Assembly: GCA_041674405.1 (NCBI GenBank) | Contig: JBAYVT010000005.1 | Span: 112,284-144,283 of the forward strand | Direction: 5' to 3' | DNA: 32,000 nt | Source: Patescibacteria group bacterium | Lineage (GTDB): Bacteria; Patescibacteriota; UBA1384; XYA2-FULL-43-10 | Part shown: piece by piece, positions 31,027-31,414 of the stretch | Layout: each line of letters starts with the position of its first letter | Position numbering within the stretch: the stretch's first letter is position 1 | The notes under the pieces: model-generated | Told to the model about the DNA's origin: nothing | What the model saw: the letters and a program-made list of their open reading frames with translations, nothing else | The model's database searches: none | Program-made: the position numbers and the translations under genes

Positions 31027-31147
31027 GTTGGCGGCGTCCTACTCTCCCGGGACCTTTTTTATCCCGCGAAGCTTCAGCGAAGTGGGGCGATCCAAGTACC
31101 ATCCCCCTTCGCTCTTCGAGCTACGGAGGGACAAGTCGGCGCTGAAA
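31027..31147 (-). pseudogene. 3' half of an outer 5S rRNA copy carrying two GC-rich insertions
   Basis: 31027-31057 is identical to 31164-31194 of the intact 5S. 31089-31103 equals 31196-31210, and 31138-31146 equals 31211-31219. Inserts lie at 31058-31088 and 31104-31137. Confidence 0.7.
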
Positions 31148-31163
31148 ATAAAAAATACTTAGT

Positions 31164-31279
31164 GTTGGCGGCGTCCTACTCTCCCGGGACCTTTCGATCC
31201 AAGTACCATCGGCGCTGAAGTGCTTAACTTCTCTGTTCGGAATGGGAAGAGGTGTACCCACTTCGCCAAAACCACCAAC
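31164..31279 (-). rRNA. rrf: 5S ribosomal RNA (intact, canonical)
   Basis: The minus strand reads GUUGGUGGUUUUGGCGAAGUGGGUACACCUCUUCCCAUUCCGAACAGAGAAGUUAAGCACUUCAGCGCCGAUGGUACUUGGAUCGAAAGGUCCCGGGAGAGUAGGACGCCGCCAAC. It contains the conserved CCGAAC, AGCGCCGAUGGUA and GAGAGUAGG blocks. Helix I closes (GUUGGUGG/CCGCCAAC), and the flanks extend the stem. Confidence 0.85.
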
Positions 31280-31297
31280 ACTAAGTATTCTTTAAAT

Positions 31298-31414
31298 GTG
31301 CTTCCTGCCCCGCGTAGCTTTACGCGGAGTGGGGTCTGCTCGGAATGGGAAGAGGTGTACCCACTTCGCCACCCGTCTCGCCTGCGGCGAAGCCGAGGCG
31401 GAAAACCACCAACA
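31298..31414 (-). pseudogene. 5' half of an outer 5S rRNA copy carrying two GC-rich insertions
   Basis: 31402-31430 is identical to 31268-31296 (helix I 5' strand plus a 17-nt leader). 31335-31370 equals 31232-31267 with one mismatch at 31339. Inserts lie at 31371-31401 and 31305-31334. It ends in GAAGCAC, which is the 5S sequence GAAGUUAAGCAC lacking 5 nt. Confidence 0.7.

Follow-up and report, generated by a model that had tools for sequence, protein, structure and literature searches.

Two dispersed families of short GC-rich hairpin repeats as the probable source of four inserts in the outer copy of a nested 5S rRNA gene of a Patescibacteria genome

The closest described relatives of the elements reported here are the repetitive extragenic palindromes (REPs) and REP doublets (REPINs) of Proteobacteria, together with their REP-associated tyrosine transposases (RAYTs). 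REPs are imperfect GC-rich palindromes of 20-40 nt; they are non-coding, dispersed and mostly intergenic, and occur in either orientation, at times as tandem or inverted pairs. We describe hairpin repeats that share all of these features in a member of the Candidate Phyla Radiation (CPR), a Patescibacteria genome (GCA_041674405.1, here G000; 929 kb in 7 contigs, 98.7% complete, 41-44% GC). The window, that is, the whole stretch of DNA analysed, comprises 32,000 nt of contig JBAYVT010000005.1 (G000:C5:112284-144283). Near its end, an intact 5S rRNA gene lies nested inside a second, displaced copy of the same gene, and this outer copy carries four inserts. Sequence comparison shows that the inserts belong to two dispersed families of short GC-rich hairpin repeats, alpha (insert 1) and beta (inserts 2, 3 and 4), and we consider it likely that they are passengers in a redundant gene copy. 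Positions are in window coordinates unless a contig prefix is given.

Although alpha and beta are short, dispersed extragenic palindromes, they lack the defining marks of the REP/RAYT systems. No associated RAYT gene or other cognate transposase was found for them, GTAG is not terminal (there is no 5' GTAG/CTAC), and there are only 1-18 copies per genome. Furthermore, REPs belong to a species or genus, whereas alpha and beta are conserved across a class and have inserted into copies of structural RNA genes.

The GC clusters of yeast mitochondrial DNA (mtDNA), the PstI palindromes of Neurospora mtDNA and the double-hairpin elements of fungal mtDNA are also short GC-rich palindromes in compact genomes of lower GC content. 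They insert in spacers and rRNA genes at variable positions, and their mobility has been inferred from presence and absence; the M-type GC clusters duplicate a TAG target. We liken our elements to them, but alpha and beta are bacterial, unrelated in sequence and show no target duplication. The Rickettsia palindromic elements are hairpin repeats of a reduced genome that are also found inside genes, including RNA genes. However, they measure 100-150 bp and often lie in frame in protein genes, whereas alpha and beta are ~30 nt long and lie mostly in non-coding DNA and dead RNA gene copies.

Two further systems resemble the locus in layout. In free-standing GIY-YIG homing endonuclease cassettes and the tRNA-linked repeats of E. 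coli, the invaded RNA gene leaves a displaced partial copy beside an intact one. The present locus differs in that no nuclease gene lies in or near the 5S nest, and the hairpins far outnumber nuclease genes. The 108-nt insertion of Halococcus 5S rRNA and the intervening sequences of 23S rRNA that are cut by RNase III resemble the inserts as extra hairpins at rRNA loops; in the present case, however, they are housed in a split, redundant copy, and the functional 5S is free of them. A survey of CPR rRNA insertions that used a threshold of at least 100 bp found none in 645 CPR 5S genes (PMC11270868). Our full-text literature search for the motif strings and for REP-like repeats of CPR returned nothing relevant.

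The locus has the following parts:

31623-32000, minus strand: 3' end of the 23S rRNA gene (Rfam LSU, 361 bits), cut by the contig end
31163-31279, minus strand: inner 5S rRNA gene, intact (Rfam, 97.9 bits)
31147-31296, minus strand: nested inner unit, the intact 5S together with a helix I lengthened by 23 bp and a U-rich tail
31026-31413, minus strand: outer (displaced) 5S copy with four inserts, delimited by repeat blocks shared with the inner copy

The inner copy is the sole Rfam 5S match in the G000 genome. The extension of its helix I forms inverted repeat I1 (arms 31149-31171 and 31272-31294), and no ORF was found inside the unit. The unit interrupts the outer 5S between C60 and U61, in the 3' strand of helix II (CAC^UUCAGC). 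Five repeat blocks align the two copies: 31402-31430 with 31268-31296 (100%), 31335-31371 with 31232-31268 (97%), 31136-31146 with 31209-31219 (100%), 31088-31103 with 31195-31210 (100%) and 31015-31057 with 31152-31194 (91%). Inserts aside, the outer copy differs from the inner one by only one substitution and a 5-nt deletion in loop B (TTAAG). A search with Rfam did not recognise the outer copy as a 5S, and nhmmer recovered only 5S positions 12-48 and 63-117 from it.

Four stretches of the outer copy lack a counterpart in the inner copy, by repeat-block comparison and by alignment. They are:

31372-31401, minus strand, rRNA sense: insert 1, an alpha hairpin repeat, CCGCCTCGGCTTCGCCGCAGGCGAGACGGG plus T, matching the alpha pattern exactly (G000:C5:143655-143684)
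31305-31334, beta-forward on the plus strand, rRNA antisense: insert 2, beta (covariance model 28.2 bits, E 1.9e-4)
31104-31137, beta-forward on the minus strand, rRNA sense: insert 3, beta (covariance model 37.3 bits, E 1.6e-6)
31058-31088, beta-forward on the plus strand, rRNA antisense: insert 4, beta (covariance model 37.5 bits, E 1.5e-6)

The preliminary description of this locus, which was made from the letters alone, had placed four GC-rich inserts of 30-34 nt at these sites and in the outer copy only. The repeat blocks confirm their sizes and, essentially, their positions, and the inner 5S has none of them. One edge taken from the blocks is ambiguous for insert 3 (31104-31135/7, 2 nt) and insert 4 (31058-31087/8). 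As beta hairpin repeats, inserts 2 and 3 were delimited at 31304-31335 and 31101-31134. The GC contents of inserts 1 to 4 are 0.77, 0.70, 0.62 and 0.58. The surrounding locus had been called AT-rich; with a genome GC of 0.41-0.44 this holds in a moderate sense, but not as an extreme. The four positions proposed in the 5S fold agree with the structure line of the Rfam 5S family. Insert 1 interrupts loop A after U12, immediately ahead of helix II, and insert 2 separates A48 from G49, among the last pairs of the helix III 3' strand beside loop B. Insert 3 splits the loop E strand (GCGCCGA^UGG) after A71 and before U72, and the site of insert 4 is loop D, after G85. Only 7 nt separate the end of insert 2 from one junction of the inner unit, and 11 nt separate the other junction from the start of insert 3, which has the inverted orientation.

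The 5S sequence runs seamlessly across the inserts, so that no target duplication is seen at the exactly defined sites. We rejected a miniature inverted-repeat transposable element, derived from a DDE transposase, as the source, because no alpha or beta site in a 5S copy has a target duplication. We also rejected an rRNA expansion segment or intervening sequence, because the inner copy, the only 5S of Rfam grade, is free of inserts. When searched against Rfam at both gathering and E-value thresholds, neither the inserts nor the cassette on the tRNA side (see below) matched a known family.

The preliminary description had listed a family of miniature GC-rich hairpins as one of its readings and had proposed a search for copies in this genome and its relatives. 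We made this search, and it turned up dispersed copies of two families, with near-identical copies both in G000 and in many related genomes. When the locus was compared with 40 relatives by blastn, every insert was matched many times away from 5S. The relatives are metagenome-assembled genomes (MAGs) and are not independent samples.

Alpha is a short, variable hairpin enclosed by the termini CCGCCTCGGC and CGAGACGGG. Among 41 genomes of the order, 12 contain the exact pattern, in 57 copies altogether, against 0 for a reversed-pattern control; the highest counts are those of G024 (18), G030 (13) and G027 (8). In a wider sample of the class it was present in 25 of 151 genomes (control 0). Insert 1, whose fold energy is -15 kcal/mol, is identical over 30 of 30 nt to a copy in G030 (G030:C6:2347-2376), a genome of another family in the same order. 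G000 itself has two exact copies, insert 1 and one within a displaced piece of tRNA-Ala, where it occupies the T-loop. This location (GGTT^) recurs: four alpha copies in all lie in T-loops of displaced tRNA pieces, every one in sense orientation. Of 30 alpha copies, 27 follow a T, but no tetranucleotide is fixed at this place, and GTAG is absent from the family. Moreover, 4 of 29 alpha copies lie within the loop of another hairpin (flanking stem of at least 6 bp) compared with 1.3% of control positions. Two local contexts of alpha were also seen. In G027 (L057, L067, L071, L075 and L078), five copies with the same core lie inside a longer repeat, ..ATTCGTAATTTAGTAATTT..ATTCGT[alpha]TAATTTAGTAGG, and in G024 alpha is placed among runs of T-rich 8-mers.

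Beta has the form CTTGYCCCN-CGNAGC-stem/loop-GCGAAGNGGGG. Its fold comprises a lower stem CCCN/NGGG, a 3x3 internal loop of G(U/A)A over GAA and a variable apical stem-loop. The internal loop and the arms CGNAGC and GCGAAG are near-invariant. A strict beta pattern matched almost nothing, and counts were made with a looser core pattern, which gave 123 copies in 29 of 41 relatives (control 3). Beta was found in 71 of 151 genomes of the class. Since the collection-wide scan returned many chance matches in high-GC genomes, only those with the full CTGCCCC context were kept. Among the matches listed, these include MAGs of Berkelbacteria, Falkowbacteria, Woesebacteria, Curtissbacteria, Peribacteria, Peregrinibacteria, Saccharibacteria, Wildermuthbacteria and Paceibacterota, as well as, outside the CPR, a few of Verrucomicrobiota, Planctomycetota and Victivallis. 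Beta-like CTGCCCC..GCGAAGTGGGG units outside the CPR were seen at L120:1490-1670 (Haloferula), L149:470-560 (Pirellulales), L145, L128 and L166; the Haloferula locus is a tandem array of such units of ~30 nt each.

The preliminary description had taken inserts 2 and 4 to be homologous and had seen one core common to all four inserts. Homology of inserts 2 and 4 stands, but insert 3 is homologous as well, in the opposite orientation; inserts 2-4 thus form one family, to which insert 1 does not belong. Insert 2 has one mismatch to the beta core (GCGGAG for GCGAAG), insert 3 matches the beta pattern exactly and has a homologous beta at the same 5S position in G018, and the core of insert 4, CGAAGCTTCAGCGAAGTGGG, is identical to that of two copies in G003. 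The relationship was recovered independently of the locus by a covariance model (R1) built from 31 beta copies, all from outside the window. Over the 32 kb of the window, R1 matched nothing besides inserts 2, 3 and 4 at E<1. On the whole of G000 it gave 9 matches at E < 0.02, three of which lie within ~280 nt of the outer 5S.

The covariation check that had been suggested showed compensatory changes in the beta hairpin. Paired cells of the alignment are complementary in 88.4% of cases compared with ~50% for slid partners, and two pairs switch between C-G and U-A (13/10 and 13/12). In the apical stem, 96 of 127 possible pairs are formed, against 27.9 +/- 5.4 in shuffled alignments, and none of 500 shuffles reached the overall structure score. 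The fold is strand-specific owing to G-U pairs. When the inserts were folded one by one, insert 2 alone surpassed its shuffles (z -3.4), and the computed fold agrees with the 9-bp hairpin described earlier; insert 4 did so when folded as the beta-forward strand (z -2.1).

The free beta copies of G000 lie 10-50 nt past long ORFs or upstream of the 23S rRNA gene. We saw no clear insertion target for beta and no orientation bias of either family relative to neighbouring long ORFs. In genus g12 (L098:1480-1540 and its orthologues, alignment A2), a beta copy lies directly upstream of the ribosome-binding site of a gene for an RRM-type RNA-binding protein.

The beta arm GCGAAGTGGG equals the 5' strand of helix II in this 5S. 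The preliminary description had drawn attention to 10 nt of insert 4 that are perfectly complementary to helix II, and to their counterpart with one mismatch in insert 2; both are present as inverted repeats I10 and I11. Two of its readings grew from this match: that the helix II strand had been copied locally by template switching or hairpin priming, or that the inserts serve as expansion segments that offer the orphaned strand a new partner. The match itself, and its nominal chance of ~0.003, speak for such an origin. However, the same arm is kept in the beta copies of G008, G015, G037, G002 and G012, even though the functional 5S of these genomes has a different, compensated helix II (GCUGNCNGGGG with CCNGNCAAGG). 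As the arm stays constant where helix II differs, the match belongs to the beta family and does not track the 5S. Judged from these alignments, the 10-nt match is a constant trait of beta and not an adaptation to this locus. Additionally, the inserts copy pre-existing families whose members occur dozens to hundreds of times away from 5S, most beta copies lying far from it; a covariance model built from outside copies recovers the inserts; and the alpha copy of G030, which belongs to another family of organisms, has the same sequence as insert 1. There is no support for a local origin of the helix II match, and we regard local copying or repartnering as very improbable.

The 5S-in-5S arrangement is not confined to the window. 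In our collection of 44 genomes of the order, 34 have a 5S match, and a full nest (an outer 5' part, an inner unit after position 60 and an outer 3' part) is present in G000, G008, G018 and G015, which span three families. G002, G029 and G037 retain the outer 3' part alone, and metagenome contig L241 has an outer 5' fragment with an intact 5S behind it. The helix II type of the window is found in the outer copies of G008 and G015, whose inner copies have the other type. We mapped the 5S insertions by eye at a handful of loci, taking the inner copies as the empty sites:

5S position ~7: insert in G037
5S position 12: alpha in G000, G018 and L241
5S position 35/36, loop C: alpha in G018, beta in G015 and a third hairpin type, gamma, in the single 5S of G030
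5S position 48: beta in G000, gamma in G018 and G029
5S position 54: two small hairpins in G008 and G018
5S position 71: beta in G000 and G018
5S position 74: beta in G015
5S position ~85, loop D: inserts in G000, G015 and G018
5S position 101: insert in G018
5S position 113: insert in G015

That different families occupy the same 5S positions suggests hot spots rather than random decay. At position 12, the alpha copies of G000 and G018 are of differing subtype, which favours independent hits, whereas G000 and L241 could be close enough relatives for their copies to be inherited. The sole target duplication at a 5S is that of the gamma copy of G030 (TCCC). This copy, a 36-nt GC-rich hairpin in loop C, lies in the only detectable 5S of that genome (L032:465-618, G030:C20) and is possibly a true expansion of a working 5S. 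G008 and G018 have in common the small hairpins TCAGCCAAAGGCTGA and TCCGCCTTTGGCGGA, which directly precede the nested unit and occupy loop B of the outer copy (L011:1680-1720, L005:1700-1745). As these two genomes belong to different families, the shared hairpins suggest that the nest is partly inherited.

The simplest fallback for such a locus would be that the inserts reflect random decay of a dead 5S, or an assembly artefact. The locus does lie ~600 nt from a contig end, within an rRNA operon, and the outer copy is certainly no standard 5S. Yet this copy has suffered so little substitution and deletion while acquiring four clean insertions of recognisable repeats, and the nested layout recurs in G008, G015 and G018. 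Two independent groundwater assemblies contain a nest identical to that of G018, which excludes assembly error as a general explanation. Random decay had been reserved for the case that the motif had no copies elsewhere and the inserts no conservation in relatives; copies were found in many relatives, which rules out random decay alone, and we find this explanation scarcely credible.

It is also conceivable that the inserts have been co-opted as RNA structure: a stem between inserts 2 and 3 would bracket the inner pre-5S and aid its processing or folding, and the other hairpins would prevent the outer half-5S from mispairing with the inner 5S. Inverted repeat I12 joins inserts 2 and 3, which lie close to the two inner-unit junctions. 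The minimum free energy fold of the 432-nt region is predicted to close the outer helix I, to leave a separate inner 5S and to pair inserts 2 and 3 around it (z -8.5). G015 likewise has a reverse beta upstream and a forward beta downstream of its inner unit. Furthermore, the outer 5' half with its inserts 1 and 2 separates the 23S from the inner 5S. A scan of 30700-31700 found no promoter-like site, and inserts 1 and 2 are therefore probably transcribed together with the 23S and the inner 5S. A scan for intrinsic terminators gave nothing relevant, and no U-run follows the hairpins.

Several observations argue against co-option. The nest of G008 has no beta at all, that of G018 has no reverse beta upstream, and G037 has one beta only; pairing of the insert 2-3 type is absent from the nests of all three genomes. 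The inner unit already has its own extended helix I of 23 bp, opposite copies of any hairpin family are complementary by construction, and the stems are too short for classical RNase III sites. We consider co-option improbable, and we think it most likely that the inserts at this locus are passengers without a role in the ribosome.

The comparisons show that the inserts are members of the two families, that these are dispersed over the class, that the beta structure covaries, that empty and filled sites are exact and that the same 5S and tRNA positions are hit in other genomes; the way in which the elements move is inferred. How might they have entered the outer 5S? We propose that the outer copy of the nest received them as DNA, with no duplication of the target site. 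The outer copy would already have been redundant thanks to the intact nested 5S, and could thus tolerate and collect insertions. Insertion at the RNA level followed by reverse transcription was rejected as unsupported, there being no RVT_1 match in G000; profile searches of this genome found no Y1 transposase, TnpB or reverse transcriptase.

Our second choice for the nature of the elements is that alpha and beta are REP-like or IS200/IS605-type non-autonomous hairpins, moved as single-stranded DNA by a Y1 (HUH) transposase in trans, in the way proposed for REP/RAYT, and inserted 3' of a short target without duplicating it. Several features fit: the lack of target duplication at every exactly defined 5S site, the T ahead of alpha in 27 of 30 copies, the excess of alpha in loops of other hairpins (4 of 29 copies vs 1.3% of control positions) and in four T-loops, the imperfect and strand-specific hairpins, and the presence of Y1_Tnp homologues in 26 of 41 relatives. 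However, Y1_Tnp (PF01797) matched nothing in G000 or in G027, even though the latter has 8 alpha and 6 beta copies. Alpha or beta flanked none of 11 inspected Y1-like genes of the relatives, and copy numbers do not follow the numbers of Y1 genes. The GTAG of beta is internal to the stem and is found in only ~55% of copies, the other ~45% having GAAG or GGAG; 1-18 copies per genome is low for REPs; and the elements have no orientation bias against neighbouring genes. A REP-like origin is possible, but we regard it as rather doubtful.

The mechanism that we prefer, though only tentatively, is break-and-repair insertion tied to cassettes that consist of a GIY-YIG nuclease gene and a spare gene copy and that invade structural RNA genes. 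The hairpins would either be carried within such cassettes or be captured at the breaks that they make. Three observations lead us to this preference: beta copies adjacent to nuclease genes, the bracketing of the inner unit by inserts 2 and 3, and an inner tRNA-Lys in G030 that is flanked by both arms of a GC-rich inverted repeat.

The first of these comes from tRNA loci. G000 has two GIY-YIG genes:

C1:240428-240688: GIY-YIG gene by tRNA-Val
C3:86835-87092: GIY-YIG gene by tRNA-Asn

Both encode proteins of 85-86 aa with the GIY-YIG domain only, and each lies directly upstream of the intact tRNA gene. Upstream of each nuclease gene is a displaced 5' fragment of the same tRNA, together with a beta- or alpha-like hairpin. 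When the two proteins were searched against all fetched loci, 12 GIY-YIG ORFs were found. Three unrelated CPR genomes have a small GIY-YIG ORF beside tRNA genes with a beta copy 7-16 nt ahead of its ATG (L121:2607-2860, L142:6223-6443, L162:3054-3307); there, beta may be a leader or regulatory hairpin. At L190, L224 and L226, beta lies at the junction of an outer tRNA fragment, 200-330 nt upstream of a GIY-YIG ORF, and one beta precedes a DUF559 nuclease-like ORF. The GIY-YIG proteins near beta consist of the catalytic domain alone, and cleavage of a target by them is putative. Because the loci were fetched for their beta copies, the informative number is how often a nuclease gene lies no more than 400 nt away. 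This was the case at ~8 of ~80 genuine beta loci among the matches listed, compared with ~0.1 expected at the G000 rate (2 GIY-YIG genes per 929 kb), which is a rough estimate and not a test. We take the association between beta and nuclease genes as a lead.

The tRNA loci of G000 also contain nests. At C2:16100-16350 (minus strand, L025), in the spacer after the 16S, two outer fragments enclose a tRNA-Ala(CGC), the 5' one with the sequence GGGCCTATAGTTAAACGG and the 3' one with an alpha in its T-loop. The last 22 nt of tRNA-Ile(GAT) (C2:17060-17300, minus strand) are duplicated ~130 nt downstream. The gene-in-gene theme is therefore not confined to 5S. Among the 47 tRNA genes of G000, at least 10 have their last 12-21 nt copied ~130-170 nt downstream (for example C1:36053, C1:99808, C1:230372, C2:112619, C3:87083, C4:44465, C5:101993 and C6:6147). 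A conserved structured segment, ..GGGGTCGGGAAAC..GTTTCCCG..ACCGAGGGTTTTT.., precedes the copied end and has no Rfam match. In G000, the 23S rRNA gene is divided between the end of contig C5 (window 31623-32000) and the start of C2 (C2:1-2460), and the 16S-tRNA-Ile-ORF-tRNA-Ala block (C2:16190-17600), with a 215-aa ORF between its two spacer tRNAs, lies 13.7 kb away from the 23S start. Thus, 16S and 23S-5S are unlinked in this genome.

A bolder version of the break-and-repair mechanism would treat the hairpins as parts or footprints of a hitherto undescribed CPR system in which small nuclease-linked cassettes invade conserved structural RNA genes (5S, tRNAs), always at set loop positions, and bring a full replacement copy with them. 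If this were true, gene-in-gene nests would be the result, the hairpins would serve to mark, or else to neutralise, the breaks made in the displaced copy, and the four inserts would be the trace of repeated attacks on the old 5S instead of neutral litter. We think such a system unlikely, though worth stating. A homing-endonuclease cassette at the 5S itself was rejected, because the inserted DNA contains no nuclease ORF, and GIY-YIG genes lie beside beta only at tRNA loci.

A number of points weigh against our view of the inserts as passengers from dispersed repeat families that entered through cassette-made breaks. No enzyme has been tied to alpha or beta, most copies are solitary with no nuclease gene nearby, and at none of the 27 5S loci that we inspected is there a GIY-YIG gene within ~1.5 kb. 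Conservation of a 30-nt non-coding element across a class, and even across phyla, is unusual for a purely selfish repeat; beta could be conserved for a host function, for example as a protein-binding or RNA motif, and its hairpin is strand-specific through G-U pairs. At the orthologous site in g12, three species have beta and one has another small hairpin instead, so that this is no clean case of presence and absence. The nominal chance of a 10-nt match between beta and the 117-nt 5S is small (only ~0.003), and an ancient evolutionary link between beta and 5S is possible. Last, inserts 2 and 3 are predicted to be able to pair around the inner 5S, and this pairing could have been co-opted.

In sum, the four inserts lead to two families of very small repeats. 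Both range across an entire class of the CPR and, as far as our searches show, neither has been described before. In the nested 5S, filled and empty sites can be compared exactly, and the comparison demonstrates that insertion left no target duplication. Inserts and nests of this kind can disrupt rRNA and tRNA annotation and contig assembly in CPR genomes, and surveys with a 100-bp cut-off overlook them. The hairpin elements, the 5S and tRNA nests, the cassettes that copy tRNA ends and the small GIY-YIG genes converge on a few loop positions of structural RNAs. This convergence points in the direction of one underlying process that reshapes the RNA genes of these minimal genomes.

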